64,000 nt of DNA. Source: Atribacterota bacterium (GTDB taxonomy: Bacteria > Atribacterota > Phoenicimicrobiia > Phoenicimicrobiales > Stramentimicrobiaceae). The position numbers were made by a program, and so were the translations under genes. Positions 19,667 to 36,419 of the stretch are shown here, piece after piece. The stretch covers positions 320,001-384,000 of the forward strand of contig JAXGNR010000004.1 in assembly GCA_040767965.1 (NCBI GenBank), read 5' to 3'. Each line of letters starts with the position of its first letter. Positions within the stretch are counted from its first letter, which is position 1. Under the pieces are notes generated by a model. That model was not told the origin of the DNA, did no database searches, and saw only the letters and a program-made list of their open reading frames with translations.

Positions 19667-20383
19667 ATGCAGAATAAATCTGCTGTGCTACTTTTGATAT
19701 GTCTATTATCCATCTTTTCTATTGCTTTTACAGGTTGCTGGAAGACAGGTGAATTAACCGAAAGCACTGTCCAAATCGAATTAGAAGAAGTAGAAACAGT
19801 AGAAGCAAAGGTAGTAATTTATAAAGGAAATTTACATATTACCGGTGTACAACAACTGCAATTGTTAAATTCCAAATTTTCATCTAATTTGGAAAAATGG
19901 AATCCTCAGGTTATTTATTCAACAGAAGGACATAAAGGGAAATTGAAAATTCTACAAACAGATAAGCAAAAAAATATTTCTGCTACAATAGAAAGTGATT
20001 GGTTTTTGTTTTTTAATAATATGATTCCTTTGGAATTAGATCTTATTGTTGGAAATGGAGATAATCAGCTAGACTTCAGTGAAATCAATCTTACTTCTTT
20101 AAAAGTGGCCATTGGTACTGGAGATAGTACTATTAATTTGACTGGAAACTATCGGGATGATCTTATTGTACATTTAATGGGAGGGATCGGAAACACTATT
20201 ATTGATTTACCAAAAGATACAGGTGTATGCTTACTGATTGAAGGGTTTATAAACAAAATTAATTGCAATGATTTTTATAGAATTGGCAGCTTCTATTATA
20301 ACACTTCTTTTGACTTTGCAAAAAAAAATATATTTATCACAATTTTTTCAGGATTAGGTAAAATTAATATAAATTTAGTATAA
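19667..20383 (+). CDS. Putative lipoprotein with beta-rich adhesin/'toast rack' (DUF2154-like) domain
   Basis: Lipobox-like FTGC; repeated G.G...IDL beta units. Confidence 0.6.
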   Translation: MQNKSAVLLLICLLSIFSIAFTGCWKTGELTESTVQIELEEVETVEAKVVIYKGNLHITGVQQLQLLNSKFSSNLEKWNPQVIYSTEGHKGKLKILQTDKQKNISATIESDWFLFFNNMIPLELDLIVGNGDNQLDFSEINLTSLKVAIGTGDSTINLTGNYRDDLIVHLMGGIGNTIIDLPKDTGVCLLIEGFINKINCNDFYRIGSFYYNTSFDFAKKNIFITIFSGLGKININLV

Positions 20384-20443
20384 TAATAAAAAATGCTAGT
20401 TAAAGTAAATATTAGATTCAATAAATAGGAGAATTAAATAAAG

Positions 20444-21037
20444 ATGAAAAAAAACAGTTACCTTTTCCTCATTATCCTTTATTTGTTTTTATTGTTTATT
20501 TTCACTGGATCCTCTATAGCACAAGAAGAAAAGCTTCAGACTGAATCCAGCTGGTCTTCAATAGACGATGTTTTTATTAAACAGGAAAAAAATTTTTTGT
20601 TAAATCCTATAGATGTAGATGGTTCCATTAAAATTGGATTTACAGTGAAAGAAGTGCAAAAGATTATGGGTATCCCTGATAAAATAGATATAAAAAAATA
20701 TATCTACTATTATCGAAAATCTCCTGTTTATTTTAACAATGAATGGAAAGTTCAATCATGGGATAACCGGTATGGAAATTTACGGGTAACCCATGAGATG
20801 AGCAAAATAAGCTTAGGTGCACATATATCAGAGGTATTTAAAGAAAAAGGGTTTCCACAAAGAGCAATAAAATTAAAGAACAGTTACCAACTGGAATATT
20901 CTGATTCTACAATCTATTTTAATCACAAATGGAATGTAGAAGCTATTCAGGAAAAAAATAAACCTGCTTACCGGTCAGATAGGGAAAATATGTCTTTAGA
21001 CGATTTTTTAGAAGAATACCATCAATTTTTAGAGTAA
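20444..21037 (+). CDS. Exported protein with two SmpA/BamE-like repeats
   Basis: Signal peptide; IKIGFTVKEVQKIMGIP and ISLGAHISEVFKEKGFP repeats. Confidence 0.55.
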   Translation: MKKNSYLFLIILYLFLLFIFTGSSIAQEEKLQTESSWSSIDDVFIKQEKNFLLNPIDVDGSIKIGFTVKEVQKIMGIPDKIDIKKYIYYYRKSPVYFNNEWKVQSWDNRYGNLRVTHEMSKISLGAHISEVFKEKGFPQRAIKLKNSYQLEYSDSTIYFNHKWNVEAIQEKNKPAYRSDRENMSLDDFLEEYHQFLE

Positions 21038-21075
21038 ACTTAAAATTAGGTTATAAAAATTAAAGTTAAAAAATC

Positions 21076-22653
21076 TTAAAAAACATTTATTTTACCATCT
21101 AAAAAGGTATCTTTACTTAATTGTATTTGTCGAAAAATCTGCATAGCTACCGGAAGACAGTTCATTATATCACTAGCAATCATGCCGTCTTCACCTTTTT
21201 TTCTGGCAGCAAGATCTCCTGCAAATCCGTGAATTAAAACGGCTTCTCTGACAGCTGATTCAAGAGGGAGACCTAAACTGAATACGGCAGCGATAATCCC
21301 TGTAAGCACATCGCCCGAACCAGCAGTAGCCATGCCGCTGTTACCAGTCAAATTGAGAAAAACTTTGCCTTCTGGTGTGCATATTAGCGAATGGGCTCCT
21401 TTTAAAACAGCAAAACAATTATGCTTTTGGGTAAAATCTTGCATAAAGTTAACAGCTTCCACTTTAATTTCATCAGTTGATTTTTTAAGCAGTCTTGACA
21501 TTTCCCCTATGTGTGGAGTTAAAATAGTTGGAGAAATACGATTGTTCAGAATATTGATATTCTCACTTAACACTGTTAAGGCATCTCCATCAAGTAAAAG
21601 AGGTTTTTCAATATCAATAATCAATTTTTTTATTAATTGCCTGGTTTCATGTTCAACAGACAACCCCGGCCCCAATACCACCATATTTGATTCTGCTGAC
21701 CTTTTTAGCAATTCATCATAATTTTCAAGAGCAATAGTACCGCTATTGGTTTCTTTTTGAGGCAAATACACAACCTCTTTAGCCTGTGTACCAATATAGG
21801 GGACAATAGAAGATGGTGCGGCTAAGAGTGAATATCCGCCACCACATTTTAAGAAAGATAATGATGAAAAAACAGGAGCTCCAAGATAGTTTCTAGCACC
21901 TGATATAAAAAGAGTTTTACCAAAAGTACCTTTATGGCCATTTACTGGCCTTGCAGGCAGAGGAGAAGGGGTATTTAGTTCTATTTTCAATTCTTCTTTA
22001 TTATATAAAGCTGGAGGGAAAGAAATATGAGAGATATGTAATTTCCCACAATAAGAAAAACCCGGGTAGAGGAGATTGCCAATCTTAGGTAGGCCAAAAG
22101 TTATAGTATGATCAGCCTTTATGGCAATTCCCATTATTTGACCATTATCTCCGTTAATACCTGAGGGTATATCTATACTGATTACTGGTTGTTTATGATG
22201 GTGATTAATAAAACTGATAATCTGATAATAGATTCCTTCGATATCTTTTTGTAAACCGGTACCAAACATTGCATCAACAATAATACTGTTTGGGTTAATG
22301 TTTGCTTTTGCTGTTTCCAATACTATTTTGGTAAAGACAGGTATTTGTAATTTCTTTACTATTTCCCAGTTTTTTAAGGCAGCTCTTCTATATTTAAGAG
22401 GATCATTAATAATAAATAAGCATACTTTTGCGCCACATGAATGTAATTTCCTGGCTAAAACCAGACCATCTCCGCCATTATTGCCAGTTCCGCAAAAAAT
22501 AGAAAAAGAAGTATTTTTGATTTTAAAATATTCAGCTATTACCTGATATGCTGCCAAGCCGGCGTTTTCCATTAAAATATCTTCAGTAAAGCCATATTTA
22601 TTGATAGCCTCCTGATCCATATTTTGCATTTCTCTAACAAATGTTAATTTCAT
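21076..22653 (-). CDS. nnr: Bifunctional NAD(P)HX epimerase/dehydratase
   Basis: LMENAG, GNNGGDG, DAMFGTG, DIPSG, GPGL, TPHIGEM and GSGDVL. Confidence 0.95.
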   Translation of the reverse strand: MKLTFVREMQNMDQEAINKYGFTEDILMENAGLAAYQVIAEYFKIKNTSFSIFCGTGNNGGDGLVLARKLHSCGAKVCLFIINDPLKYRRAALKNWEIVKKLQIPVFTKIVLETAKANINPNSIIVDAMFGTGLQKDIEGIYYQIISFINHHHKQPVISIDIPSGINGDNGQIMGIAIKADHTITFGLPKIGNLLYPGFSYCGKLHISHISFPPALYNKEELKIELNTPSPLPARPVNGHKGTFGKTLFISGARNYLGAPVFSSLSFLKCGGGYSLLAAPSSIVPYIGTQAKEVVYLPQKETNSGTIALENYDELLKRSAESNMVVLGPGLSVEHETRQLIKKLIIDIEKPLLLDGDALTVLSENINILNNRISPTILTPHIGEMSRLLKKSTDEIKVEAVNFMQDFTQKHNCFAVLKGAHSLICTPEGKVFLNLTGNSGMATAGSGDVLTGIIAAVFSLGLPLESAVREAVLIHGFAGDLAARKKGEDGMIASDIMNCLPVAMQIFRQIQLSKDTFLDGKINVF

Positions 22654-22682
22654 TTTAGACCTTTAAGTCATTATTTTAATAA

Positions 22683-22907
22683 TTAATGATTGCATGATGA
22701 ACAGTTTTTACTGTGACAGGAAGCACAGTCTGAAGTATTGGTTGACAAATTGTTTCCTTTACATAAACCAAATCCGTCAAAAATTCTCTTAATGTGATGA
22801 CTACCGCATTTATCACAAATAAAATCACCTTTTTCCATATCTTTTATTGATGCCTTTATTTCTGTTTTAGCAAAACAATCCTGACATTGAAAAGTATAAT
22901 TAGGCAT
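22683..22907 (-). CDS. FmdB-family zinc-ribbon protein
   Basis: MPNYTFQCQDC...CDKCGS; Cys-rich tail; GGAGG RBS. Confidence 0.85.
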   Translation of the reverse strand: MPNYTFQCQDCFAKTEIKASIKDMEKGDFICDKCGSHHIKRIFDGFGLCKGNNLSTNTSDCASCHSKNCSSCNH

Positions 22908-23063
22908 ATCTTAACCTCCAAAGTTAAAGAAAGGGAAATCATACCGCTTAATTTATAATTTTATATTAACTAAAACAAAAATACAATATTTAGAAAATAA
23001 TAGTAAAATCATCTTATTATATTGTGTTTTACAAGAAGAACCACAGTCATTTTTTATAAAAAT

Positions 23064-23079
23064 AGGCATTTGATTTGCT
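23064..23079 (+). promoter_or_regulatory. Possible sigma54 (-24/-12) promoter upstream of the giant gene
   Basis: AGGCAT-TTGAT-TTGCT with GG-N10-GC spacing. A sigma70-like TTGCTA...TAAAAT overlaps it, so the call is ambiguous. Confidence 0.4.
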
Positions 23080-23146
23080 AACCAGGATAAAGATAGTAAA
23101 ATAGTATTATAATAATTATATTTTTAAGATAAGCAGGAAAAGAAAA

Positions 23147-26100
23147 ATGCAATTATCAAAGGATGATCAAGAATTAAATTTAACCTCAATTGATATCTTA
23201 CAATATTTGAATAAAGATGAAATCCTATTAAGGCATGGCTTAAAACAAAAAGATATTACCGTAATAAAAAAAGATGCTAATTTTAACAAAACCTTAAATA
23301 ATCTGATACAACAAAAAAAATTACAGGCAAAAGATATTTTAAGTTTAGTTATTGGTAAATTGAGGGAAATAGATGAAAATCTTAATACAAAGCAATGGTT
23401 AGAAATGATTTATTATTACTGTCAATTTTTGTCTTTTCCTGAAACAAGCCCGGCAGTTCAAAATATAAATCTTCCCACGAAAAAAATATTTACAATTTTT
23501 CTTTTATTTTATCGATTCCTGGTAATCGAACCTCATCAGCTTCAGAAGAAGTATTCTGCTTCCAGTTATCCTTTATTATTTTTAACTGAGAAAGAAATTT
23601 CTTCCCTGGAACAGCCTGCTGAATATCAAAAATTTTTAGAGGCATATAATAGATTGTTTGTATACGAAATGATGGTCTTAGGAAAAGAGATATTTGGGTA
23701 CAATACATGTGATCATATCTGTGGTGTGCATACTCTAGCTTTAAGCCTGGCGAGACAATTAAAAAGCCAGGGACTGTTTCTGGATTTAGGTATCATATCC
23801 GGAGCCGCTGCCGGACACGATATAGGTAAATATGGGTGTAAAAGCAACGAACAGGAAAAAGTTCCATATTTGCATTATTATTACACTGATATCTGGTTTC
23901 AGAGGCAAAATATTCCTTATATAGGCCATATTGCAGTTAATCATTCTGTTTGGGATCTGGAATTAGAAAACCTTTCTTTAGAGTCCTTGATATTAATATA
24001 CTCAGATTTTCGGGTAAAAAATATTCCCCAAACACAGGAAATGTATATTTATTCCTTACAGGATTCATTTCGAATAATTTTAGAAAAATTAGATAATTTA
24101 GACAGACAAAAAGAGAGAAGGTACAAAAGAGTTTTTGCCAAATTACAGGATTTTGAAGAATTTTTGATTGAAAAGGGGATAGAAACCTGTCCAGTCCTTT
24201 CTGATAACACAAAAAAACAAAAAACAAAAAACAGTGTTTCCTATTCTTTACTGCATGGTGAAGAAATTATTAAACACCTCAAGCAACTGTCTTTAGAGCA
24301 CAGTTTTAATTTAATGTATCAGCTGAGAAATGAGCCTGCTGTTAATTCAATATTAGAACTTGCTCGAAGTGAAAAGAATTGGCAGAATATTCAGGATTAT
24401 TTAAGAATATTTTCTGAATATTCAACTTACCTTAATCAAAAAGAAAAATTATTCACTTTAAGATTTTTATATGAAAAACTAATTTTTCCGGAAGAAGGAA
24501 TAAGAAGAAGAAGTGCTAAATTAATTGGCTATTTAATTGCCGGTTTTGATGAAAAATATCGTAAAGAGATACCTGAAAATGTAGAGATAATATCATCTAA
24601 AATAAAAAGCTATAACTTGTTAGGGAAATATATTCAAGAAATTATTGAGCCTAAACATAAGGTTCCTGAAATGATTTATGCCAGAGTAAGAGAAAATCTT
24701 GCTTTTGTATTTGAGGCCTTGTTTGAGAAAAGTCAGGGACGTCAAATAAGGGATTTCAGAAGGGTTATCAATGGAATATATAAAAAGTATACTTATAAAC
24801 AGATTTCTAAAGATAAGGCAGTTTGTCTATTACAGGCTATCAGATATATCCCGTTCTTATTAAATGAAAATATAGATTCTGTTTTAGTAGATTTTCTAGA
24901 CCAATTTATCGAACATAAAGATGATATTTTGAGATTGAATTCCCTCTCTGTTATTGAAGAAATTATAGATAAATTACCGGAAAAAGATCCTTTTCGAGAA
25001 AAATGTCAATTTCTATTAATTAATAAACCTGACAAATCTGTTTTCCCTGTAGAAAATTATCTATGTTACAAATTGCTAACCAAGACAAAGAATAATCAGT
25101 ATTTGCCTAAACGTTTTCAAGAGTATTGTCAGCAGGACAAAGAGAAAATTGATCGAATGTATTTAACCAATTTAAAAACATCTACTGACCCTATAATCAA
25201 AAAAATACAAATTGACATACTTCTAGAAAAGGCAAAAACGGACAGAAAAGAAGCTGTCTATACAGCTCTGCATTTTTGTAATATCCTGAAAGTAAGTAGT
25301 CATGAATCTATCAGAAATTATGCTGGTAAATCCTTAATTAAAATTATCCCATATTTAAATATGGAACATAAAAATGATATTGCAATTGAATTGTTGAAGG
25401 CTTTGGAGATTGATGACTATCAGTATACAAAATATATTCCATATTATTTAGGACAATTAATTCCTTTCTTGCCGCCTGGTGAGATAGATGAATTTATTGC
25501 TGAATTTGAGCAAAAAACAAAAATATCCGATCAGTGGATCAGTGTTCTGCTTTTGAGAACAATTGCTGTGGCTATTAGCAGGTATGCTCCTTATCAAAGC
25601 AGATATAATGAAAGTTCAGAGAAGGTAGAAGATAGATTAAAGAGAATGTTAGGGATTTTGATGAATGGTTTGGTACATCAGGATTCACCGGTAAAAAGGA
25701 TTACTTCACATGCTATAGGCAGAGAGATATTTGCCTCAGAGCATCTCACTCTCAGGGAAAAGAGTGTTATTTTACGTTTTATCGCAAAAAAATTATTAAA
25801 TCTATTGTCCTCTATCTCAATTCAGGACTCACTATTATTTTTTACAAATACTGTTGCATTGCACCAGATATATGTATATATGTCTGATTATATCTTTTTT
25901 GAAGGCTCCTTAAAGCTGGCAGTTCCTACCAAAGTGGCCTTTTTCCCAGGGTCATTTGACCCTTTTTCCACCAGTCATAAAGAAATAGTAAAAGAAATTG
26001 AAAAGATGGGAATAGAAGTATATTTGTCTGTAGATGAGTATTCCTGGTCTAAAAGAACCCAACCTCATCTTTATAGAAAAAATTTAATTAATATGTCAAT

Positions 26101-28144
26101 TGCTGATGAATTAGATGTTTATTTATATCCTGAAAATCTGCCTAATAATATTGCAAATCCTACTAATCTTAAATTACTGAAAAAGCAGTTTCCATTTTCA
26201 AAAATATACATTGTTGCCGGAAGTGATGTATTGTTAAATGCTTCAGCTTATTCAGAAAGCAATAATATCGATTCTATAATGCATTTCCCTCACATTATCT
26301 TTAGCCGAAAACCTTTTCATTTAAGCAGTGAACAAAAAGATAAATATTTATCAATAATGAATAAAATAAAAGCAGAAGTTATTCAATTAAATTTAGAAAC
26401 TCCTTTTGAAGAAATAAGCTCAAGCCTGATAAGAAAAAATATTGATAATCACCGGGATATAACCGGGTTAGTTGATCCTCTTGCAGAAAGATTCATCTAT
26501 CAACACAGTTTATACCAGCGTGAACCCCAATTCAAGGCAACACTGCAAAAAGTTTTTACTGAAATAGAAATAATAGAGAAATTTAAAGATTCTTTTATCC
26601 AATCTTTAGTTGAAGATATATTCCCTGATAATTTGAAGTCGGAAGTGGAAAAATGCTTAAAATTATTAAGGAAAAAACAAAATCCCCGGCTCATTATATT
26701 AAAAGATACTCTCAAAAAAGAAAGGAAACTTGGTTTTGCAGCAGTACACTGGGTAAGGTCAAGTTTGTTTTATCACGAATTTCAGGATAACAATATTACC
26801 CAGTTTATAAGAGATTATGCTACTGGGAGAACTATTATCATAGACGGAGTTTTTATAACAGATAGCATCAAAGATGAACTACATTTAAACCAGCTAAGGC
26901 AAATCATATTAACCCAGACGCTTACTTTTTGTGTGCAAAAAGATTATGATTATGCCATTTTTAAAAATATGATTCCTTTAATGGACAACAAAGGCTTAGT
27001 GGAATTAATGGAGTTGTATGGTTTTACAGAGATACCGGTCAGCAATAAGAATTATCCTATTCTGGCAGTTGATATCCGTAAGCCTAGCACAGTAAATCTG
27101 GATATAGAAACTCTTATAAAAGAGCCTTTTGTAAAGAATAAGAGAATAATTCAGGCAATATACAATGCTCGTAAAAGTATGCTGAAGGCGATGACTCAAT
27201 TATATCCAGGTCATTTGTTGATACCTTTTAATATGGATATTGTTAACCAGTCAATTGTAAAAAAAGTATGTCATGAAAATGGTGTTTCGATTGTACAGAG
27301 CGAAGTTAATGCATCAGGCCCATTGATGTGTGTTCCTTTTGGAAAAATATTACATAAAATGGTTGTCCCCAATACAGTTACAAAGTCATTACATACTGAT
27401 AAAATATTTACACCAGATATGCAACATTTTAAAATCGATGCATTTTCTAATTATATGAGTTTGGAAAACCAGGTAAAAATGATCAAGTCTTTCAATAAGC
27501 CGGTACTATTAATTGATGATTTACTGCACAAAGGATATCGCCTTAAGGCAATCAGTCCTCTTTTACAGAAAGAAAAAATAAAAGTTCATAAAATTATTGT
27601 TGGCTTAATATCAGGAAGAGGAAAAGAATTGGCCATGATGCAAAAACGTTCTGTAGATAGCGCTTATTTTATTCCTAATTTACGAGTATGGTTTAATGAA
27701 AGTGATCTATGCCCTTTTATCGGAGGAGATGGTTTGTTTCGTCAGGAACCGGATCAGGGGAATTTGGTTCGTTCAATCAATATGATTTTACCATATGCCT
27801 ACCCAGTCTTTCTAAAAGGAGTTAAATCAGAGACTATTTATCGTTTTTCTGAAATCAGTATTGAAAATGCCATCAATATTATTCTGGCTTTAGAAGAAGA
27901 ATACCAGGAAATCTATCATCGCAAGTTAACATTAGGACATTTGGGAGAAGTATGCATCTATCCCAGGTATCCTGATCAGGGTAAAAGCATTCACTATGAT
28001 CTTGCCCTGACTGTATCTCTTTACCTGGAAAACAATCTGGAATTATTGCAGAGAAGCTGGGAAAGAGAAAAGAAAGCAAAAAAGGAAGATATGCTACTTT
28101 ATCCCAATTCCCAGGAATTTTCTAATAGAAAGGAGGTTTTATGA
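23147..28144 (+). CDS. Giant multidomain protein: HD domain, HEAT-like repeats, NadD-like nucleotidyltransferase, GNAT-like segment, PRTase-like C-terminus
   Basis: H190..GHDIGK(H224/D225)..H243..H266..D287; FPGSFDPFSTSH (G935-H944), IVAGSD, ISSSLIR (~aa 1090); VLLIDDLLHKG (aa 1453-1463). Confidence 0.75.
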   Translation: MQLSKDDQELNLTSIDILQYLNKDEILLRHGLKQKDITVIKKDANFNKTLNNLIQQKKLQAKDILSLVIGKLREIDENLNTKQWLEMIYYYCQFLSFPETSPAVQNINLPTKKIFTIFLLFYRFLVIEPHQLQKKYSASSYPLLFLTEKEISSLEQPAEYQKFLEAYNRLFVYEMMVLGKEIFGYNTCDHICGVHTLALSLARQLKSQGLFLDLGIISGAAAGHDIGKYGCKSNEQEKVPYLHYYYTDIWFQRQNIPYIGHIAVNHSVWDLELENLSLESLILIYSDFRVKNIPQTQEMYIYSLQDSFRIILEKLDNLDRQKERRYKRVFAKLQDFEEFLIEKGIETCPVLSDNTKKQKTKNSVSYSLLHGEEIIKHLKQLSLEHSFNLMYQLRNEPAVNSILELARSEKNWQNIQDYLRIFSEYSTYLNQKEKLFTLRFLYEKLIFPEEGIRRRSAKLIGYLIAGFDEKYRKEIPENVEIISSKIKSYNLLGKYIQEIIEPKHKVPEMIYARVRENLAFVFEALFEKSQGRQIRDFRRVINGIYKKYTYKQISKDKAVCLLQAIRYIPFLLNENIDSVLVDFLDQFIEHKDDILRLNSLSVIEEIIDKLPEKDPFREKCQFLLINKPDKSVFPVENYLCYKLLTKTKNNQYLPKRFQEYCQQDKEKIDRMYLTNLKTSTDPIIKKIQIDILLEKAKTDRKEAVYTALHFCNILKVSSHESIRNYAGKSLIKIIPYLNMEHKNDIAIELLKALEIDDYQYTKYIPYYLGQLIPFLPPGEIDEFIAEFEQKTKISDQWISVLLLRTIAVAISRYAPYQSRYNESSEKVEDRLKRMLGILMNGLVHQDSPVKRITSHAIGREIFASEHLTLREKSVILRFIAKKLLNLLSSISIQDSLLFFTNTVALHQIYVYMSDYIFFEGSLKLAVPTKVAFFPGSFDPFSTSHKEIVKEIEKMGIEVYLSVDEYSWSKRTQPHLYRKNLINMSIADELDVYLYPENLPNNIANPTNLKLLKKQFPFSKIYIVAGSDVLLNASAYSESNNIDSIMHFPHIIFSRKPFHLSSEQKDKYLSIMNKIKAEVIQLNLETPFEEISSSLIRKNIDNHRDITGLVDPLAERFIYQHSLYQREPQFKATLQKVFTEIEIIEKFKDSFIQSLVEDIFPDNLKSEVEKCLKLLRKKQNPRLIILKDTLKKERKLGFAAVHWVRSSLFYHEFQDNNITQFIRDYATGRTIIIDGVFITDSIKDELHLNQLRQIILTQTLTFCVQKDYDYAIFKNMIPLMDNKGLVELMELYGFTEIPVSNKNYPILAVDIRKPSTVNLDIETLIKEPFVKNKRIIQAIYNARKSMLKAMTQLYPGHLLIPFNMDIVNQSIVKKVCHENGVSIVQSEVNASGPLMCVPFGKILHKMVVPNTVTKSLHTDKIFTPDMQHFKIDAFSNYMSLENQVKMIKSFNKPVLLIDDLLHKGYRLKAISPLLQKEKIKVHKIIVGLISGRGKELAMMQKRSVDSAYFIPNLRVWFNESDLCPFIGGDGLFRQEPDQGNLVRSINMILPYAYPVFLKGVKSETIYRFSEISIENAINIILALEEEYQEIYHRKLTLGHLGEVCIYPRYPDQGKSIHYDLALTVSLYLENNLELLQRSWEREKKAKKEDMLLYPNSQEFSNRKEVL

Positions 28145-29412
28145 TTTACTACTATCGATATTCCAATAAATTACTTTTTTCAAAGTATAAAATAAAGAAA
28201 CTGGTAACAATAAAAAATGATGATCCGGTTGTCCACCAAAAAAAATTTCTCTATTATCTGGATAGGCAAGAATGGGGAAAAGTAAGTCCTAAAAGCGTCT
28301 TGATTCACCCTGGTCAGTTGAAAGGACAGGAAGATATAAGTATATTAAAAAATACTTATGGTGATAATGATGATTTTGACTGTTTACCTGGCTGGATTAA
28401 AAAAAAGATAAAAGATAGAGAAATTGGCTTTATAAATTATAATCATCCTGGATGGAAGAAAATTCTAAAATGGGAAAAACCGGCCAGGTGGAAGGTAAAT
28501 ATTATTGGTTTAGGTAATGTAGGTGGTACTTTGTTGACTGCATTGCGCTTGATTGGAAGTGAAAAAATTACTGAAATAGGCATTTTTGATACAAATGAAC
28601 AAGCTCTTTCGCGTTGGGAACAAGAAGTAAATCAGATAGTAGATAGCTCCTCAAAAATTGACATGCCTAATGTAAAAATAATTAAAGAAAATAAAATATT
28701 TGAAGCAGATATGGTCATATTCTGTATTTCTATAGGGGTTCCTCCACCAGGACAAAAAATAAAAGATGTTAGAATGATGCAATTTACTGCCAACTCAGGA
28801 ATTATTAATATCTATGCCCAACAAGCTAGAAAGTTAGGTTATAACGGTATTTTTGCAGTTGTTTCCGATCCTGTTGATTTATTGTGCCAAAGTGCTTTTT
28901 TAACAAGCAATCGGAACGAAAAAGGCATTTTGGATGGGGAAGGTCTTAGCCCTGATCAAATTAGAGGATTTGGATTAGGAGTAATGCATGGCAGGGCTGT
29001 TTATTATGCAAATAAAAATAAAAAGACCAGACTTTATCTTGAAAAAGGCCGTGTATTTGGCCCTCATGGAAAAGGGCTGGTTATTGCAGACAATATGGAA
29101 GATTACAACCATCAACAATCAATTGTTTTATCTAAAAAGGTACTGCAGGCAAATATTGCCATCAGAAGAACTGGTTTTAAACCATATATTGCACCGGCTC
29201 TTTCTTCTGGAGCTTTGTCAGTACTGGCTTTAATAAGTGGAGACTGGCATTATAGTGCAGCTTTTCTGGGAGGAATATTTTGGGGTGCTAAAAATAGACA
29301 AACCTCTCTCGGTTTGGAGTGGGAGCAGAACAGCATATCAACGGATTTATTTGAAAGAATAAACAATAGTTATCAATATCTTAAAAAATTAGCCCAAAAT
29401 TTGGAAAAATAA
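28141..29412 (+). CDS. Divergent lactate/malate dehydrogenase-fold protein with N-terminal extension
   Basis: IIGLGNVG, GIFD, VVSDPVD, GLGVMHGR and FGPHG; AAGGAGG RBS and ATGA overlap with the upstream gene. Confidence 0.8.
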   Translation: MIYYYRYSNKLLFSKYKIKKLVTIKNDDPVVHQKKFLYYLDRQEWGKVSPKSVLIHPGQLKGQEDISILKNTYGDNDDFDCLPGWIKKKIKDREIGFINYNHPGWKKILKWEKPARWKVNIIGLGNVGGTLLTALRLIGSEKITEIGIFDTNEQALSRWEQEVNQIVDSSSKIDMPNVKIIKENKIFEADMVIFCISIGVPPPGQKIKDVRMMQFTANSGIINIYAQQARKLGYNGIFAVVSDPVDLLCQSAFLTSNRNEKGILDGEGLSPDQIRGFGLGVMHGRAVYYANKNKKTRLYLEKGRVFGPHGKGLVIADNMEDYNHQQSIVLSKKVLQANIAIRRTGFKPYIAPALSSGALSVLALISGDWHYSAAFLGGIFWGAKNRQTSLGLEWEQNSISTDLFERINNSYQYLKKLAQNLEK

Positions 29413-29480
29413 AAAAATAACATATAATAAAAAAACTAAAAATAAAAAACTTGTCATAAAGGAATTGTCAGGAGGGGAAA

Positions 29481-30020
29481 ATGAAAGCTTTATTGATAAT
29501 TGATGTGCAAAATGATTTTATTAGAAATGGTTCTCTTGCAGTCAACAAAGCTGAAAGGATTATTCCAATTATAAATAAGTTATTACAAAAGTTTGATTAT
29601 AGTATGGCCTCTAAGGATTGTCACCCCCAGGAATCTGTTCATTTTAAAAAATGGCCACCTCATTGTGTTGCAGGTACAACAGGGGCTGCTTTCCCTTTTG
29701 ATTTAGATCAAGAAAAAATAAATCAAATTCTATATAAAGGAACCAGCAATAAAGATGATGGATATTCAGCATTTGAGGCCAACAATATAAACTTGATAGA
29801 ACATCTACAAGAAAAAGGAATAACTGACTTATACATTTGTGGAATAGCATTAGAGTTTTGCGTGAAATCCACAGTTCTGGATGCCTTAGAAAAAAGACTT
29901 AATGTCTATATGTTAAAAGATGCCATTGCTCCTTTTTCTGAAAAAGAAGAAGAGATTAAACAGTATTATTCTGAATTGGAAAATGCAGGTGCAAAAATTA
30001 TTTCCTCAACAGCAGTATAA
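29481..30020 (+). CDS. pncA: Nicotinamidase/pyrazinamidase
   Basis: IIDVQNDF..GSL, KDCHP, WPPHC, KG...YSAF and GIALEFCV. Confidence 0.88.
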   Translation: MKALLIIDVQNDFIRNGSLAVNKAERIIPIINKLLQKFDYSMASKDCHPQESVHFKKWPPHCVAGTTGAAFPFDLDQEKINQILYKGTSNKDDGYSAFEANNINLIEHLQEKGITDLYICGIALEFCVKSTVLDALEKRLNVYMLKDAIAPFSEKEEEIKQYYSELENAGAKIISSTAV

Positions 30021-30145
30021 CGATACAATTAATATAATGGGATACTAGGATACTTATCCAAAGGGATAGAACAATAAAGTGGAAAGATGTTAGTAAAGAC
30101 TAAGGGAAAATAGGATATAGTAAATGTACAAAGAAAGAAATTAAA

Positions 30146-30790
30146 ATGAATTCTTCAGTTAAATACCAACAAACTATTGAGATGCCGGTACAAATAAAAA
30201 ATATCATTAAAAAAAGCCGTTTTATAGCAACAGTAAAAGAAGTTGAAAAAGAAGATGAAATAAAACAGTTTTTAAAAGAAATAACACAGGAATTCCCGGA
30301 TGCAAATCATCATTGCTGGGCCTATCAAATTGGCTATACCAATAGATCCCTGTCCCATTATTCTGATGGGGGAGAACCAGCTAATTCTGCTGGTCCTCCT
30401 ATTTTACAAGCGATTAGAAAAGAAATGGTAACAAATGTAATGGTAATTGTAACCCGTTATTTTGGAGGAATAAAACTGGGAATCAGCGGACTAATCAAAG
30501 CTTATAGGGAAACAGCGTTAATAGGCATTCAATCAGCAGGAAAAATTAAAAAATATCCCCTGAGAGAGTACATTTTCGAAAATATTGATTATCAAATTCT
30601 GGGTAATATAATACAGTTAATAGAAAGTCAGTCTGGCAGAATAGAAAAAATAGATTACCGAGAAAAAGTAAAAATAATGGTTCTTCTGCCAGACAATTTA
30701 AAGGAATGGCTTGTCAGTAATCTTTATAATTTTTCTCAGGGCAATATACATATTAACCAGGGAGAGATTCATTGGTTCAGTAAAAAATAA
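30146..30790 (+). CDS. yigZ: YigZ/IMPACT family protein
   Basis: IKKSRF, ANHHCWAY, DGGEP and VTRYFGGIKLG. Confidence 0.9.
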   Translation: MNSSVKYQQTIEMPVQIKNIIKKSRFIATVKEVEKEDEIKQFLKEITQEFPDANHHCWAYQIGYTNRSLSHYSDGGEPANSAGPPILQAIRKEMVTNVMVIVTRYFGGIKLGISGLIKAYRETALIGIQSAGKIKKYPLREYIFENIDYQILGNIIQLIESQSGRIEKIDYREKVKIMVLLPDNLKEWLVSNLYNFSQGNIHINQGEIHWFSKK

Positions 30791-30855
30791 AATAATAAGT
30801 AAATATTTAAAATAAAATAAATATTTCAAACTGGATCTGATTAGAGGTAAAAAAG

Positions 30856-31347
30856 ATGAAAATATTAATAACATATTATTCTCGTTCCGGTAAGACAGAA
30901 AAAATCGCTGAACAGGTTGCTCTTAAAATTAATGCAGAACTCCAAAAAATTAGTGATCAAAAAAACAGGGCAGGCATTTTTGGTTTTATTTCCAGCGGTA
31001 ATGAAGCTTATCTCAAACAAACAACAACTATTGATAAATTAGAAAAAGATCCGGCTAATTTTGATCTAATAATTATAGGTACCCCCGTTTGGGCTGGCAA
31101 TGTATCATCTCCTGTGAGAAGTTTTTTACAGGAATACAATTCTAAATTTAAAAAAGTTGCCTTCTTCTGTACCAGTATGGGTTCAGATCCCGGTCCGATA
31201 TTTTCAGCAATGGAAAAGCTGGCAACTCAAAAGCCCCTAGCCGTTATGAATGTTACAGCCCGTGACATGAAAAAGCATTTTCAGAAAGAACTGATCGCCG
31301 ATTTTGTTGCTTTAATTGGAAAACAAAGCAATGATGGATATATATGA
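30856..31347 (+). CDS. Flavodoxin family protein
   Basis: YYSRSGKTEKIA, GTPVWAG and KKVAFFCT. Confidence 0.88.
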   Translation: MKILITYYSRSGKTEKIAEQVALKINAELQKISDQKNRAGIFGFISSGNEAYLKQTTTIDKLEKDPANFDLIIIGTPVWAGNVSSPVRSFLQEYNSKFKKVAFFCTSMGSDPGPIFSAMEKLATQKPLAVMNVTARDMKKHFQKELIADFVALIGKQSNDGYI

Positions 31348-31374
31348 TAAGAAAGATGAGAAAAACAATATGTT

Positions 31375-31779
31375 ATGATAAGTAAAAAAGAATTTGAAGA
31401 ATTAGTGGAAAAAGCTATAAGTGAACTGCCATTCTATTTTAGAGAAAAAATGGAAAATATTGCCATCTATGTAGAAGAGTTTCCCGATCAGGATATGCTC
31501 CAGAAGCTTGGGCATAAATCTCCATATTCGCTTTTGGGTATCTATCAGGGAGTTCCAGTAACTCGCCGTGGAATTCATTATAGGAATGTCATGCCTGATC
31601 GGATTACTATTTTTCGTAAACCAATCTTAAGAAAAAACAACAATATTGCAGATCTTAAAAATGATATAAAAAGAGTAGTTATGCATGAAATCGGTCATTA
31701 TTTTGGATTAAATGACTATGATCTCTTTTTAATAGAAAAAGAACATTTCAATAAAAACAATTCCAGCAATGAAAGCTAA
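31375..31779 (+). CDS. Zinicin-like metallopeptidase (DUF1025 family)
   Basis: LLGIYQGVP, PDRITIFR and HEIGHYFG. Confidence 0.88.
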   Translation: MISKKEFEELVEKAISELPFYFREKMENIAIYVEEFPDQDMLQKLGHKSPYSLLGIYQGVPVTRRGIHYRNVMPDRITIFRKPILRKNNNIADLKNDIKRVVMHEIGHYFGLNDYDLFLIEKEHFNKNNSSNES

Positions 31780-31782
31780 AAA

Positions 31783-32358
31783 CTATGATAAAAATTTTCT
31801 GCTGCCAGGCTTAACCGGCTTACTGCCTTGCTGGCAAAGTGGACAGTCTTTTTCATCATATATTTTAATATCAAGCTGTATTCCGCTAAAAACAGGTACG
31901 CCAAGGTCTTCATGCTTTGATCTTCTGTCTACAATACAGGCTACACCCAGGACATTCCCTCCTAATTCAGAGACTAAATTTTTCACCTCTAAAGTAGATT
32001 TACCAGTGGTGACAACATCTTCACTTATCAAGATATTAGATCCTTTCTTTACTGTAAAACCTCTTCTGAGAGTAACTGTATTGTCAACCCTTTCAGTGAA
32101 AATTGTTTCCACATTCATTTGTCTACCCATTTCATATGAAGTAATAATTCCTCCAATGGCTGGTCCCACTATCAGATCAATTTTCAAATCACTTATTTTT
32201 GCACATATTATTTTCATTATCTGCTCCGCATGCCAGGGGAACCTTAAGGCTTGTGCACATTGCACATACTGACGGGAATGCTTGCCTGAAGAAAGCAGAA
32301 AATGGCCTTCTAGTAAAGCACCAGTTTCTTTCAAAATATTCAAGATTTTGGTATTCAT
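31783..32358 (-). CDS. pyrE: Orotate phosphoribosyltransferase
   Basis: GHFLLSSGKHS, EDVVTTG and KPGSR. Confidence 0.95.
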   Translation of the reverse strand: MNTKILNILKETGALLEGHFLLSSGKHSRQYVQCAQALRFPWHAEQIMKIICAKISDLKIDLIVGPAIGGIITSYEMGRQMNVETIFTERVDNTVTLRRGFTVKKGSNILISEDVVTTGKSTLEVKNLVSELGGNVLGVACIVDRRSKHEDLGVPVFSGIQLDIKIYDEKDCPLCQQGSKPVKPGSRKFLS

Positions 32359-32383
32359 ATTATTCTCCTTATTATCCTTACTA

Positions 32384-33289
32384 TTAAATTATCCCAACTA
32401 TTTCTTTAAGAGTAGAGATTTTGTTTGTTTCTAAATAATTATATAAGTCTATAAGTATTCTTTCACCAATGTTAGGATTAATAAAATTTGCTGTTCCTAT
32501 CTGGACAGCTTGTGCTCCTGCCATCAGGAATTCTAAAACATCCTCTGCACTCATAATTCCTCCAATACCCATTACCGGGATAGAAATATTATGCGATACT
32601 TCATGTACCATTCTCAGGGCAATCGGTTTAATACATGGACCTGACAATCCTGCATAGGTATTCTCAAAAACCTTTCTTTTTTGGATTACATCTATAGCTA
32701 AAGACCTGACAGTGTTTATTAGTGAAACAGCATCAGCCCCTTCTTCCTGGCACACCTGGGCAATTCTGACAATATCATCGGCATCGGGACTTAATTTTAT
32801 CATTAAAGGGCAGTTTACAACATTTCTGGTTTCTTTAACTACTTCACGGGTAGTATTTTCTTTAATACCAAAAGGAATATTATTTTCCTTTATATTGGGA
32901 CAGGAAATATTTAATTCAATCATATCTACTTTTTCCAGGGATATTTTTTCACACGCTGAAATATAATCATTTAAACTGGAACCACTTATATTTATTACAT
33001 GTACCAAGTTTAGTGATTTCATATAAGGAAGCTCTTTTTGTATAAACTGCTCAATTCCTGGATTTTCCAATCCTACACTATTCATCATTAAAGACTCAGT
33101 TTCCCAGACACGGATACCTTTGTTGCCGGATCTGGGTTGCAGAGTTAAACCTTTGCTGACAATTCCGCCTAATTTTTCAATTTCGTACAATTCAGCATAT
33201 TCACGACCAAAACCGAAGGTACCTGAAGCCATAAAAAGAGGGTTTTTTAATAAAAAATTTAAAAAAGGTAATTGTAAGGGGTTATTCAT
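32384..33289 (-). CDS. pyrD: Dihydroorotate dehydrogenase B, catalytic subunit
   Basis: ASGTFG, NSVGLENPG, ELNISCPN, KLSP and GLSGP. Start set at MNNPL. Confidence 0.93.
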   Translation of the reverse strand: MNNPLQLPFLNFLLKNPLFMASGTFGFGREYAELYEIEKLGGIVSKGLTLQPRSGNKGIRVWETESLMMNSVGLENPGIEQFIQKELPYMKSLNLVHVINISGSSLNDYISACEKISLEKVDMIELNISCPNIKENNIPFGIKENTTREVVKETRNVVNCPLMIKLSPDADDIVRIAQVCQEEGADAVSLINTVRSLAIDVIQKRKVFENTYAGLSGPCIKPIALRMVHEVSHNISIPVMGIGGIMSAEDVLEFLMAGAQAVQIGTANFINPNIGERILIDLYNYLETNKISTLKEIVGII

Positions 33290-33989
33290 AAAAGATATCC
33301 TTTCCCAGAAAAACAGGTCCATCTTTGCATACTCTAGCATTACCATTTTTTGTTTGACAGGAACAAACCAAACAAGCCCCTACTCCGCAAGCCATTCTCT
33401 TTTCCAGAGAAAGATAATGTTTGATATTATAATTTCGGGCTTTTTCTTCTATTTTTCGCATCATGATTTCTGGTCCGCAACTGAAAATTATATTATATTT
33501 CTGATATGGAATATAATCTGTAATATATCCTCCATAGTTTATCTCCAGAAGATTGGATAATTTTTGAAAATAAGATTCGAAAACATTTTTTTGCTGTAAA
33601 CCTAAGAAAACATCAATGTTTTTAACTTCAGGATTACCTTGTAATTTTTTTAAAGCATAGAAGAGGGGGGCAATACCTGTTCCTCCTCCAACCAAAGCTA
33701 GATTTCCTGATATATTTGTGGGGAATCCGTTACCATATGGGCCATTAATAGTAATTTCATCACCAATTCTACATTTTGCTAAAACAGCCGTTCCTTTGCC
33801 GCTTATGCAGTAGAGGAAGGTAACTCCATCCTCCTCTAAATCATAAACACTCATTGGCCGGCTTAAAAACATTTCCTGACTATTTTTTCTAATCATAAAA
33901 AATTGCCCTATCTGAGCATGGTATTTACCTGCAATTTTTAAGAGATAATAATTATTTTTCAAGGGTTTATTAAAAGAAACTAGCGCCAT
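33282..33989 (-). CDS. pyrK: Dihydroorotate dehydrogenase electron-transfer subunit
   Basis: RPMS, GPYGNGF, GGGTGIAP, CGP and MACGVGAC..C...C.DGPVF. Confidence 0.93.
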   Translation of the reverse strand: MALVSFNKPLKNNYYLLKIAGKYHAQIGQFFMIRKNSQEMFLSRPMSVYDLEEDGVTFLYCISGKGTAVLAKCRIGDEITINGPYGNGFPTNISGNLALVGGGTGIAPLFYALKKLQGNPEVKNIDVFLGLQQKNVFESYFQKLSNLLEINYGGYITDYIPYQKYNIIFSCGPEIMMRKIEEKARNYNIKHYLSLEKRMACGVGACLVCSCQTKNGNARVCKDGPVFLGKDIFYE

Positions 33990-34837
33990 TGGCTTATATC
34001 CTTTTTCATTTTCAAAACTTTTTCTCTGGTAATAGTAACAAAATTGTCTGTTTCATCAAGACCTTTATGAGCAGCAATTATCCCACGAGATGAATTGATA
34101 ACTGCATTAATATTATTTTTAAATATTCTGGAAAAGTCTTTCCCGGTACCTCCCTGTGCTCCATAGCCAGGAATAAGGAAAAACGTGTGCCGGGCTACGT
34201 TTTTTATTTTGATGAATTCTTCAGGGTAGGTTAATCCTACCACTGCCCCAATGGTACTATAATTGTACTTACCTCTAAATTTCTCTCCCCATTCCTCAAT
34301 TTTCCTGGCAACATGCAGGTAAAGAGGTTGTCCTTCAACTACTAATTCCTGGAAGTCTTGTGAGCTTGGATTAGAAGTTTTTGCTAGGATAAATAATCCT
34401 TTTTCTCCATTATCTAAATATGGGAAATAAGGTTCAATAGCATCTAGTCCCATATATGGGTTGATAGTAAGAAAATCTGCCTCAAAATCACCTGAAAAAT
34501 GACCTTGCGCATATTCTTGTGCAGTAGAAAAAATATCACCACGCTTAACATCGGCAATAACTATATTTTCTTTTTTTCTAATATGTGCCAGGGTTTTTTG
34601 ATAAGCCTGAAGTCCCAGGATGCCATGTGCTTCATAACAGGCAATTTGTACTTTATAACAAGCAGTAATATCCGAAGTGTTATCAATAATAGCTTTATTA
34701 AAAAGAAATAATTTGTCTGCAATACTTATGTCCTGTTTACAGGCAAGAGAATCTGGAAGATAATCTAATCTGGTGTCAAGCCCTATGCAGACCGGCCCTC
34801 TTTCTTTTACTAATTCATAAAGTTTATCTATTATCAT
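33980..34837 (-). CDS. pyrF: Orotidine-5'-phosphate decarboxylase (long subfamily)
   Basis: CIGLD, DVKRGDI, KTSNP, LIPGYGAQGG and NSSRGI. Confidence 0.95.
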   Translation of the reverse strand: MIIDKLYELVKERGPVCIGLDTRLDYLPDSLACKQDISIADKLFLFNKAIIDNTSDITACYKVQIACYEAHGILGLQAYQKTLAHIRKKENIVIADVKRGDIFSTAQEYAQGHFSGDFEADFLTINPYMGLDAIEPYFPYLDNGEKGLFILAKTSNPSSQDFQELVVEGQPLYLHVARKIEEWGEKFRGKYNYSTIGAVVGLTYPEEFIKIKNVARHTFFLIPGYGAQGGTGKDFSRIFKNNINAVINSSRGIIAAHKGLDETDNFVTITREKVLKMKKDISQWR

Positions 34838-35987: not shown

Positions 35988-35996
35988 TTCAATTAC

Positions 35997-36419
35997 CTAA
36001 ATTCTTGTTTTTTCATGACAATATTCACATTGATATTCCCCAATAGCAGGGTTAACCAGAGTAAACTCGATATCGCCAACATTTTCAACAGTGCTAATGC
36101 ATCTTGGATTTTTACATTTTAAAATACCATAGACCTTTTTGGGTAGTTCAAGTTTTATCTTCTTTTTCCTTTGTCCGTTTTCTATAATATTAATGGTGAC
36201 TCCTGAGTCTATTAATCCTAAGACAGTTAAATCAAGATAAATATCATTTTCTATTTTGATAAGGTCTTTTACTCCCATTTTAGTAGAAGGAATGTTCCTA
36301 AGCAATACTACGGTATCATCTAATTTATCCAGGCTTAACTGGCTAAATATTTTATATCCATTTCCAGACTTGATATGATCTATTACAATCCCTTTTTTTA
36401 ATTTGGAAACATTTATCAT
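35997..36419 (-). CDS. pyrI: Aspartate carbamoyltransferase regulatory subunit
   Basis: [14 protein letters not shown] and CKNPRC...CEYC. Confidence 0.93.

Follow-up and report, generated by a model that had tools for sequence, protein, structure and literature searches.

In the Preiss-Handler logic, a phosphoribosyltransferase (PRTase) step and a NadD-type nucleotidyl transfer follow one another directly. The known nicotinate PRTase is a type II enzyme. NadD carries two nucleotide-binding motifs, G.F.P.(H/T)..H and ISST..R, and the HIGH-motif cytidylyltransferase/NadD class acts on small phosphorylated molecules; GlnE and GlnD use a different fold. YqeK is an HD-domain hydrolase usually encoded beside nadD. 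The PRPP motif of type I PRTases consists of a hydrophobic strand, two acidic residues and an (S/T)-G-x-T-type phosphate loop. Catalysis by lactate dehydrogenases (LDHs) relies on a loop arginine, an Asp-His dyad and a substrate arginine. Here, we describe a locus from an Atribacterota bacterium in which domains related to several of these enzymes are joined on one very long chain. The analyzed stretch of contig JAXGNR010000004.1, 64,000 nucleotides in full, is referred to as the window.

A conserved operon and its distribution

The giant gene opens a self-contained operon, which comprises the giant gene, a gene for an LDH-like protein and, in most genomes, a third gene for an FMN_red-type protein. 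In the window, the genes of the locus and the junction are as follows:

21076..22653, minus strand: divergent gene for an NAD(P)HX epimerase/dehydratase (Nnr); YjeF_N E 7e-51, Carb_kinase E 1e-45
23147..28144, plus strand: giant gene, 1665 aa, from the open reading frame list and translation
28128..28144, plus strand: AAGGAGG ribosome-binding site and ATGA stop/start overlap, read directly from the sequence
28141..29412, plus strand: gene for the LDH-like oxidoreductase, 423 aa; Ldh_1_N above the Pfam cut-off
29481..30020, plus strand: nicotinamidase-like PncA gene, 179 aa, with an Isochorismatase domain

The junction between the first two genes reads AAGGAGG-TTTT-ATGA, the stop of the giant gene overlapping the start of the LDH-like gene. 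Both the reading frames and the junction confirm the arrangement first described for this DNA, a 1665-aa gene with an ATGA overlap and a strong ribosome-binding site, followed by a pncA-like gene. Measured as longest ORFs, the giant and LDH-like genes of 64 related loci are mostly -20 to +25 nt apart, and these short gaps, together with the ATGA overlap, point to translational coupling. The linkage of the two genes, whose constancy the original prediction had put forward for checking, proved tight and conserved: the LDH-like gene lies downstream in 69 of the 71 loci with enough downstream DNA. The third gene comes next in 65 of 67 related loci. The next commonest neighbor cluster reaches 9 of 80 loci, and the neighbors are otherwise varied housekeeping genes.

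Searches with the giant protein returned 811 relatives at E<=0.001; of the 120 listed, 116 have lengths of 1623-1669 aa. Giant-gene loci were confirmed in at least 585 species genomes, distributed over Clostridia, one Atribacterota order and a Calditrichales genome. Length and architecture are constant within the family, and neither gene order nor protein length shifts between phyla. Among the shorter matches listed for residues 1126-1665 there was no clear stand-alone form; these are mostly short-contig or partial-labeled proteins, consistent with fragments of giant genes. Existing database labels for the giant read only “cytidyltransferase” or “nicotinate-nucleotide adenylyltransferase,” and no published study of the family was found in the full-text literature, as judged from search listings, in line with the earlier statement that no characterized protein has such an architecture. 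In the ESM Atlas, clusters with PF00156 (for the C-terminal part of the giant) and PF01966 (for the N-terminal part) came up as leads. Cultured carriers exist among the related loci (Sedimentibacter saalensis, Anaerovorax odorimutans, Clostridium tagluense, and Fusibacter paucivorans), so the role of the module is directly testable.

The PncA-like gene is a lineage-specific neighbor that lies outside the conserved set. Its product matches the Isochorismatase Pfam family (E 2.9e-26, 93.1 bits vs. a cut-off of 27) and the nicotinamidase model PRK11609 (E 1.2e-34, 120 bits, below the cut-off of 174). It had been put forward as a member of the system, yet tblastn matches to pncA occur at only 2 of the 80 giant loci, both from close Atribacterota relatives, and the conserved third member is instead the FMN_red-type protein. 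The start of pncA falls within 10 nt of the end of the third-gene ORF in locus L001 and ~50 nt from it in L002, which hints at a pyridine link in that lineage. Similarly, nnr lies upstream of the giant gene only in L001-L003 among the 80 loci.

No riboswitch was found in an Rfam scan of window positions 20000-32000, the sole match being a sub-threshold RAGATH-19 inside a coding region, nor in seven related loci, where the sole match was a T-box far downstream in locus L023. Promoter-like sites are not in excess (42 vs. 43.9 in shuffles). Terminator-like sites number 12, vs. 4.7 expected from shuffles, and most fall within coding sequence.

Domains of the giant protein

The proposed order of an HD domain, a HEAT region of ~520 aa, a NadD/NMNAT-type nucleotidyltransferase (NTase), a GNAT fold and a type I PRTase fold, to which a helical cap is added, was borne out, all five domains being recovered by profiles, family conservation or structure models. 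The features are:

23684..24166, plus strand: HD phosphohydrolase domain, residues ~180-340 (boundaries approximate), from PF01966 in relatives
24344..25921, plus strand: HEAT-repeat region, residues 400-925, from PF02985 in relatives
25928..26521, plus strand: NadD/NMNAT-type nucleotidyltransferase domain, residues 928-1125; PF01467 above cut-off
26549..27082, plus strand: GNAT-fold domain, residues 1135-1312; AF2 model m774b2d6df971, pLDDT 89.7
27212..27712, plus strand: type I PRTase-fold domain, residues 1356-1522; model m7416edfc0039, pLDDT 91.9
27713..28096, plus strand: C-terminal helical subdomain packed after the PRTase core, residues 1523-1650, from the models

The HD family PF01966 matches the giant of the window at E 0.066 (14 bits against a gathering score of 22) and is matched by 30 of 40 giant-family members at E<=1 (best 3.6e-7). 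H190, H224, D225, H243, H266, and D287 are invariant in 40 giant sequences, and the H...HD...D metal set of the HD superfamily is present. A kinship of this domain with YqeK, as originally suggested, could not be demonstrated. YqeK (TIGR00488) and the giant have in common that an HD-superfamily domain is linked to a NadD-type one, but hhalign gave only 7.7% probability over 42 columns, with the H..HD segment alone aligned. TIGR00488 was not among the matches listed for the giant at E<=0.1, and hhalign of giant profiles against single sequences (the YqeK of the genome and the PyrE of the window) found nothing. Of 41 genomes sampled from the phylum, 39 have YqeK, and lineages without the giant gene are part of that sample.

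The HEAT region is predicted from matches to PF02985 in 35 of 41 family members (E<=1, best 3e-9), along with matches to other HEAT/ARM families. When residues 400-925 and the LDH-like protein were modeled as a complex, the score was 0.00, which speaks neither for nor against contact.

The NTase domain matches Pfam CTP_transf_like (PF01467) over residues 932-1097 (E 1.5e-6, 28.9 bits vs. a cut-off of 21) and the NadD model TIGR00482 over positions 2-194 of 194 (E 7.8e-12), with 45.6 bits, below the equivalog cut-off of 112.45. NadD chains in the PDB match it down to E 1.9e-5. Both NadD nucleotide-binding motifs are present, as PGSFDPFSTSH and ISSSLIR, and P934, G935, F937, D938, P939, H944, I1090, S1091, S1092, and R1096 are invariant in 22 sequences. 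Matches are restricted to cytidylyltransferase-like, NadD and CoaD families; the GlnE/GlnD-type class is not among them.

In the GNAT superfamily, the loop that binds the pyrophosphate of acetyl-CoA reads Q/R-x-x-G-x-G/A. The fold predicted for the giant is well matched by structure, with a best Foldseek E of 2.3e-6 and a VIA Z of 13.9 (rmsd 2.8, 147 residues aligned to 1wwz_B), and all listed rows of both searches are titled as acetyl- or acyl-transferase-type. No such loop motif was found in residues 1236-1249, the segment after the fourth strand, where column conservation is 0-2 out of 10. Of the GNAT assignment, then, the fold stands and a conserved cofactor loop does not, and to judge by its sequence the domain looks non-catalytic.

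The PRTase fold was recovered by structure prediction. The Foldseek rows listed for the modeled domain are without exception type I PRTases or PurR (best E 3.1e-5, probability 1.00), and the top 18 VIA rows are PRTase-family proteins at Z 8.2-10.8 (best rmsd 4.0, 125 aligned). At the sequence level, PF00156 is matched by 22 of 41 family members at E<=1 (best 0.0037), with 12.8 bits vs. a cut-off of 26.3, and a GNAT+PRTase profile run against PDB sequences met only HPRT, at the PRPP loop (E 0.83). The core is near-totally conserved and among the most conserved parts of the giant; D1457, D1458, G1463, and R1465 are invariant. At the PRPP loop, HKGYR stands in place of an (S/T)-G-x-T-type sequence, and the domain may thus only bind a ligand. 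Both models show residues 1523-1650 as long helices at high pLDDT, a part that the fold searches barely cover.

The LDH-like partner and the third protein

The LDH-like protein matches Ldh_1_N (E 1.4e-8, 35.3 bits vs. a cut-off of 27) and an L-LDH from the PDB (E 1.8e-10), and hhalign aligns it to canonical LDHs at 96.8% probability. The L-LDH model TIGR01771 gives 38 bits vs. a cut-off of 303, and no match to Ldh_1_C was found on this protein. The hhalign alignment supports the altered active site that had been noted from the sequence: R211, R285, and H309 are kept, and an invariant methionine, M282, stands at the position of the dyad aspartate, leaving the catalytic set incomplete. D243 stands at the asparagine of TNPVD. 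The retained carboxylate-clamp arginine and catalytic histidine suggest that the enzyme acts on a carboxylate-bearing substrate. By sequence, the partner family, which has its own N-terminal extension (~115 aa), is a separate clade.

A small second family has an LDH-like domain within proteins of 944-1005 aa (four full-length and two partial closer representatives, and five more distant ones). A phmmer search with a fused relative gave 153 representatives at E<=0.001, whose lengths fit the partner or the fused family, an assignment made by length alone. Weak HD matches occur in 3 of 10 aligned members of the fused family, and no similarity between this HD and that of the giant was detectable.

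The third gene encodes a ~350-aa FMN-reductase-type protein with a cysteine cluster, which in locus L001 forms a compact four-cysteine motif. FMN_red (PF03358) is matched at E 1e-18 to 4e-22 in related loci, and no family match was found for the extra N-terminal domain. Within the order, 42 genomes have the giant and 37 of these also the third gene, which is in 0 of 10 genomes that lack the giant; these counts come from related and not independent genomes. A search of the window and its genome did not find it, and it has been lost from the source genome. It is absent also from G046, G071, G073, and G074 and from loci L049 and L079, and is thus dispensable.

Candidate functions and relation to known systems

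The source genome encodes a separate canonical nadD (179.3 bits) with yqeK beside it (143 bits), as well as a nicotinate PRTase of type II (478 bits), and each of the three scores clears its cut-off. The giant is thus an accessory paralogue and not the NAD-building line of the cell, and as the only NadD or nicotinate PRTase of the genome it was ruled out. The module is patchily distributed and absent from complete genomes of the same genus (e.g., G077), and so it cannot make an essential cofactor. Housekeeping NAD genes elsewhere, together with this patchy distribution, mark it as an accessory system.

What survives of the first of the two originally proposed functions, a line for NAD or a related dinucleotide, is the dinucleotide part, which remains our best guess. 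From the domain content, we tentatively read the module as an accessory line beside ordinary NAD salvage that would make and turn over an NAD-like dinucleotide. That one chain holds both a PRTase and a NadD-type transferase suggests consecutive steps, because this is the relation of the two in Preiss-Handler logic. The PRTase-fold domain would join a base to PRPP, or at least bind a 5-phosphoribosyl compound, and the NadD-like domain would adenylylate the resulting mononucleotide to the dinucleotide. Turnover would come from the HD domain, which would hydrolyze a phosphoester or anhydride bond in the product or in an intermediate. Scaffolding or ligand sensing may fall to the HEAT region and the GNAT-fold domain, and redox steps that act on the base or use the product would be the work of the LDH-like enzyme and the flavoprotein. 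Counting for this reading are the architecture, the catalytic-looking conservation in the NTase, HD and PRTase domains, the linkage and coupling of the genes, the co-occurrence of the third gene with the giant in the order, the separate housekeeping genes, an LDH-like active site that is for the most part preserved, and the closeness of pncA to the third gene in L001 and L002. Several observations count against it: the PRPP loop is altered, the HD, PRTase and NadD model scores of the giant in the window are below curated cut-offs, the GNAT domain looks non-catalytic, the adjacency of pncA and nnr is confined to the closest relatives, regulatory RNA gave no clue to a ligand, and the third gene is dispensable.

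A bolder proposal, in our estimate quite improbable, is that a non-canonical dinucleotide, serving as cofactor or signal, is both built and used by the three-gene module. Here the type I PRTase-fold domain would ribosylate an unusual, probably carboxylate-bearing base, the NadD paralogue would adenylylate the resulting compound and the HD domain would recycle the product, while the LDH-like protein and the flavoprotein would form the base or use the product. If true, this would be an undescribed redox cofactor pathway common to amino-acid-fermenting Clostridia and Atribacterota.

A second, regulated Preiss-Handler-type line with ordinary substrates, boosting or buffering NAD supply in anaerobes, is an explanation that we consider unlikely. 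Nicotinate from PncA and PRPP would give NaMN at the PRTase, ATP would then give NaAD at the NadD-like domain, and the HD domain would trim by-products. NadD is indeed the best match of the NTase and aligns along its whole length, the module is flanked by pncA and nnr in the source lineage, and pncA closely follows the third gene in L001 and L002. However, the known nicotinate PRTase is of type II and is already in the genome along with nadD, the NaMN-site motif differs from that of E. coli NadD (SWSK vs. PPHR), pncA occurs in 2 of 80 loci only, and the near-obligate LDH-like and flavoprotein partners are left unexplained. The class of the NTase weakens the other function first proposed, a GlnE/GlnD-like protein modifier in which the NTase would adenylylate the LDH-like partner and the HD domain would remove the group. 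The two genes are tightly coupled and a pairing of writer and eraser is conceivable, but a domain of the HIGH-motif cytidylyltransferase/NadD class, not of the GlnE/GlnD class, makes such a role very unlikely.

The altered PRPP loop and the unconserved GNAT cofactor loop count in favor of a metabolite-sensing regulator or a writer/eraser of a small signal, a possibility to which we give a low probability. The PRTase-fold and GNAT-fold domains might sense ligands of the PRPP, ppGpp or acyl-CoA type and control an opposing NadD-like synthetase and HD hydrolase acting on a dinucleotide signal, with the LDH-like protein and the flavoprotein reporting redox state. This would be analogous to RelA/SpoT, where hydrolase, synthetase, and sensor domains share one chain. 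A hydrolase and a transferase do share a chain with a long HEAT scaffold, PurR and ppGpp-bound XPRT are among the structural neighbors of the PRTase domain, and the family with an LDH-like domain on a 944-1005 aa chain has weak HD matches in 3 of 10 members, but its HD is without detectable similarity to that of the giant. Moreover, few parts of the giant are as conserved as the PRTase core with its catalytic acidic pair, the LDH-like protein keeps catalytic residues, and no DNA-binding or output domain was seen in Pfam/NCBIfam matches. An anti-phage or counter-defense system that depletes or rebuilds NAD is highly improbable. NAD-related domains are present, but for all four proteins PADLOC gave no family at a meaningful score, only one weak match at the PRPP loop to the PRTase-domain protein ShosT (E 0.0042), and the varied housekeeping neighbors and the gene order and protein lengths held across phyla also speak against it; a role in defense was set aside.

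Solving the module could bring to light a new dinucleotide, a new means by which strict anaerobes control their pyridine-nucleotide pools, or a new role for the LDH fold. Compared with NadD/NMNAT enzymes, the NTase of the giant aligns over its full length to NadD models and PDB chains and keeps G.FDP...H, ISS..IR, and G.D. It differs in having SWSK at the mononucleotide site, in being embedded in a 1665-aa chain and in scoring far under the equivalog cut-off, in a genome with a separate true NadD. With type I PRTases (XPRT, APRT, HGPRT, OPRT, and UPRT) and with PurR and PyrR, the giant shares the core fold and a hydrophobic strand followed by an invariant DD and a glycine-containing loop, but it has the HKGYR loop, ~130 aa of extra helical cap and a Z of only 8-10.8. 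The partner resembles the L-lactate/malate dehydrogenase family in its Rossmann domain and in the aligned loop arginine, substrate arginine and histidine; unlike these enzymes, it has a methionine for the aspartate of LIDSxR, an aspartate for the TNPVD asparagine and the ~115-aa extension. FMN_red flavoproteins include the iron-sulfur flavoprotein (Isf), and the third protein is like this family in its FMN_red domain and four-cysteine motif (L001), whereas its extra N-terminal domain of ~160 aa sets it apart. Every domain comes from a known superfamily, and the fixed five-domain chain and its near-obligate LDH-like and flavoprotein partners together make up a conserved module.

Architecture and distribution of the giant protein family

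The giant protein of 1,665 aa belongs to a real, large family, so far uncharacterised, whose architecture is unusual and fixed and whose gene lies in a conserved three-gene module. A word-indexed search returned 811 relatives at E ≤ 0.001, and among the matches listed 116 of 120 are 1,623–1,669 aa long, with 43–65% identity over 94–100% of the query. The source labels of the relatives read "cytidyltransferase" or "nicotinate-nucleotide adenylyltransferase". At least 585 loci were confirmed in a scan of species genomes, and the best 80 of these span Atribacterota, many Clostridia and a single genome of Calditrichales. Loci L024 and L034, on two contigs that share a record prefix, seem to be two giant genes of one metagenome-assembled genome, of which one has both partner genes and the other lacks both inside 8 kb downstream.

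Within the phylum the gene occurs in 42 of 86 genomes surveyed, all from one order (14/21 in family f1, 27/30 in family f2, plus the genome of the window), and in 0 of 34 genomes from five other families. In one genus it is found in 3 of 9 genomes, and the absentees include a 98%-complete genome. Given this patchy occurrence, the giant gene is accessory. The statement in the original prediction that no characterised protein with such an architecture is known agrees with a full-text literature search (subscription journals and supplementary files lay outside its coverage), which returned no report on the family.

Family-wide evidence for the domains is much stronger than scans of the window's own protein, in which the sole library match above cut-off is Pfam CTP_transf_like (residues 932–1097). 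NCBIfam added a NadD match that spans the full model yet stays sub-threshold (E 7.8e-12), together with weak matches to HGPRT and HD. Among 40 aligned relatives, 30 match the HD model PF01966 at E ≤ 1 (best 3.6e-7), and residues H190, H224-D225, H243, H266 and D287 are invariant, a pattern typical of two-metal HD enzymes. A HEAT repeat model is matched in residues 400–925 by 35 of 41 relatives (best 3e-9). Solved NadD chains align over the whole nucleotidyltransferase (NTase) domain, whose invariant positions are PG.FDPF...H944, G1025.D1027 and ISS..IR1096.

An AlphaFold2 model of residues 1126–1665 (pLDDT 89.7, pTM 0.89) contains a GNAT fold at 1135–1312 (Foldseek best E 2.3e-6; VIA Z 13.9, rmsd 2.8 over 147 aligned residues). 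The least conserved part of the region is the segment where GNATs bind acetyl-CoA. Because GNAT matches filled both structural match lists, residues 1320–1650 were folded separately (pLDDT 91.9). All Foldseek rows listed for this second model are type I PRTases or PurR (best E 3.1e-5), and in VIA the first 18 rows belong to the PRTase family, aligned to model residues 37–203 with moderate Z values of 8.2–10.8. Structure prediction therefore recovered the PRTase fold. The predicted type I assignment rests on these fold matches, on an invariant DD pair and glycine loop, and on weak PF00156 matches at the PRPP loop in 22 of 41 members. The originally proposed order HD-HEAT-NTase-GNAT-PRTase was thus borne out by family-wide profiles, the NadD alignment and the fold matches.

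Conserved partners and the locus

Features of the locus and of the related families
23147..28144, plus strand: giant gene, ORF of 1,665 aa
28141..29412, plus strand: LDH-like gene, ORF of 423 aa
29481..30020, plus strand: pncA (nicotinamidase-like), ORF of 179 aa
L001:14213-15304 (locus of a close relative): third gene, ~350 aa, FMN_red-type
P0244-P0248, P0336, P0353, P0358, P0362, P0373 (alignment A9): members of a separate family with an LDH-like domain

The sequence confirms that the giant and LDH-like ORFs share an ATGA overlap with a strong ribosome-binding site (AAGGAGG, four bases ahead). The pncA ORF has its own AGGAGG site and is preceded by a 68-nt AT-rich spacer. A divergent gene for a bifunctional NAD(P)HX epimerase/dehydratase (nnr) lies upstream of the giant gene; downstream are a YigZ/IMPACT protein and a flavodoxin, followed by the pyr operon on the opposite strand. 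The latter is an ordinary pyrimidine biosynthesis cluster (31783-37339, minus strand) encoding a PRTase-domain protein, dihydroorotate dehydrogenase B and its Fe-S subunit, OMP decarboxylase, an amidohydrolase, PyrI and aspartate carbamoyltransferase. A 74-aa ORF (22683-22907, minus strand) with its own GGAGG site and two CxxC pairs separates nnr from the giant gene and looks zinc-ribbon-like. A 197-aa ORF (20444-21037, plus strand) had zero matches in Pfam and NCBIfam scans and is kept at the same position in loci L001–L003 at 48–51% identity. At least half of the sampled words from 26500-30100 are present in each of eight DNA-type runs from eight studies, labelled as landfill, soil, bioreactor, anaerobic digester and biofilm metagenomes; the run with the largest share may stem from the source sample.

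The predicted co-occurrence of the giant and LDH-like genes holds. Among the 71 of 80 loci with at least 1300 nt past the giant gene, tblastn placed an LDH-like gene downstream in 69, within 800 nt in 68 and 5.4 kb off in one; none was detected downstream in L025 and L034. In the 64 loci where the LDH-like ORF starts −20 to +400 nt from the giant ORF end, most starts fall between −20 and +25 nt. Clustering of all flanking ORFs from the 80 loci revealed a third conserved gene, located ≤400 nt past the LDH-like gene in 65 of 67 loci with enough DNA (exceptions L049 and L079). The C-terminal half of its product matches FMN_red (E 1e-18 to 4e-22); the protein has a compact four-cysteine motif, and family scans gave zero matches for its N-terminal domain of ~160 aa. 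Order-wide it occurs in 37 of the 42 genomes that carry the giant gene and 0 of the 10 that do not, statistics that are inflated by kinship among the genomes. In G070, G052 and G055, all from this order, in-frame stops interrupt the third-gene match.

The next commonest neighbour cluster appears in 9 of 80 loci, the flanking genes being varied and housekeeping. Matches (tblastn) to pncA and nnr were found in 2 and 3 of 80 loci, all in the closest relatives. Both are lineage-specific neighbours, and pncA drops out of the system as originally proposed. The third gene is missing between 29412 and 29481 and from the rest of the window's genome (98% complete), where the only FMN_red match is weak and of 203 aa. 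The window carries a reduced two-gene version of the module, plus the lineage-specific pncA.

The profile of the LDH-like protein matches solved L-LDHs in the NAD domain alone (best E 1.8e-10). Ldh_1_C has no match in the protein or the genome, and the protein carries a family-specific N-terminal extension of ~115 aa. Aligned at a probability of 96.8% over 176 columns to eight canonical LDHs that other families of the same phylum encode, the profile matches R211 to the loop Arg, R285 to the Arg of LIDSxR and H309 to the His of GEHG. The anticipated alteration is seen at invariant M282, paired with the Asp of LIDSxR, and invariant D243, paired with the Asn of TNPVD. In LDHs the loop Arg, the substrate Arg and the Asp-His dyad make up the catalytic set. 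With three of the five residues kept and two changed, the protein appears to be a rewired yet active oxidoreductase of the 2-hydroxyacid type. Canonical L-LDH (TIGR01771) occurs in 11 of 86 genomes, all in the module-free families f3 and f4, and in 0 of 52 genomes of the module-carrying order; this pattern may reflect plain phylogeny instead of functional replacement.

The separate family (944–1005 aa; four full-length and two partial closer representatives, five more distant) has a homologous LDH-like domain near its N-terminus (28% identity, E 4e-24), a middle of 250–300 aa without family match and, in 3 of 10 aligned members, a weak HD match near the C-terminus. Similarity between this HD region and that of the giant protein is not detectable, so the family is a weak Rosetta-stone hint.

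Ordinary NAD metabolism and possible roles

In the window's genome a canonical nadD (179 bits against a cut-off of 112) adjoins yqeK (143 bits). A nicotinate PRTase of the PRK08662 type (478 bits against 243) and NAD synthase-like matches are also present; NadA was not found. With separate nadD, yqeK and nicotinate PRTase genes present, the giant protein is a paralogous addition. The parallel first drawn with nadD-HD (YqeK) pairs is not supported: profile-profile comparison of its HD domain with YqeK gave a probability of 7.7% with alignment limited to the H..HD segment, and the domain does not appear to be specifically YqeK-like. Of 41 genomes sampled from the phylum, some of them from lineages without the giant gene, 39 have YqeK itself.

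Architecture, conservation, operon layout, paralogy and accessory occurrence are established; the chemistry is an inference from them. We tentatively favour an accessory line that would make and turn over a dinucleotide. The PRTase fold would join a base and PRPP into a mononucleotide, from which the NadD-type transferase would form a dinucleotide with ATP; their presence on one chain suggests consecutive steps, and an HD hydrolase within the same polypeptide points to turnover. The strong conservation of the PRTase core favours a functional site there; the degraded GNAT loop speaks for a structural or sensing role of the GNAT domain. The redox-type partners, LDH-like protein and flavoprotein, may perform redox chemistry tied to the product. 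The riboswitch scan found none, hence no ligand clue.

A redundant line for ordinary NaMN and NaAD is a less likely explanation, and we consider a sensor, or a writer and eraser of a signal, similarly doubtful. Nucleotidylylation of proteins seems very improbable. So does a role in defence, for which a PADLOC search gave no meaningful match.

Compared with known systems, the giant protein is assembled from known enzyme superfamilies. Both C-terminal folds of the original prediction stand; the GNAT cofactor segment is poorly conserved, and the PRPP loop is altered, reading HKGYR in contrast to the threonine-rich loop usual in type I PRTases.
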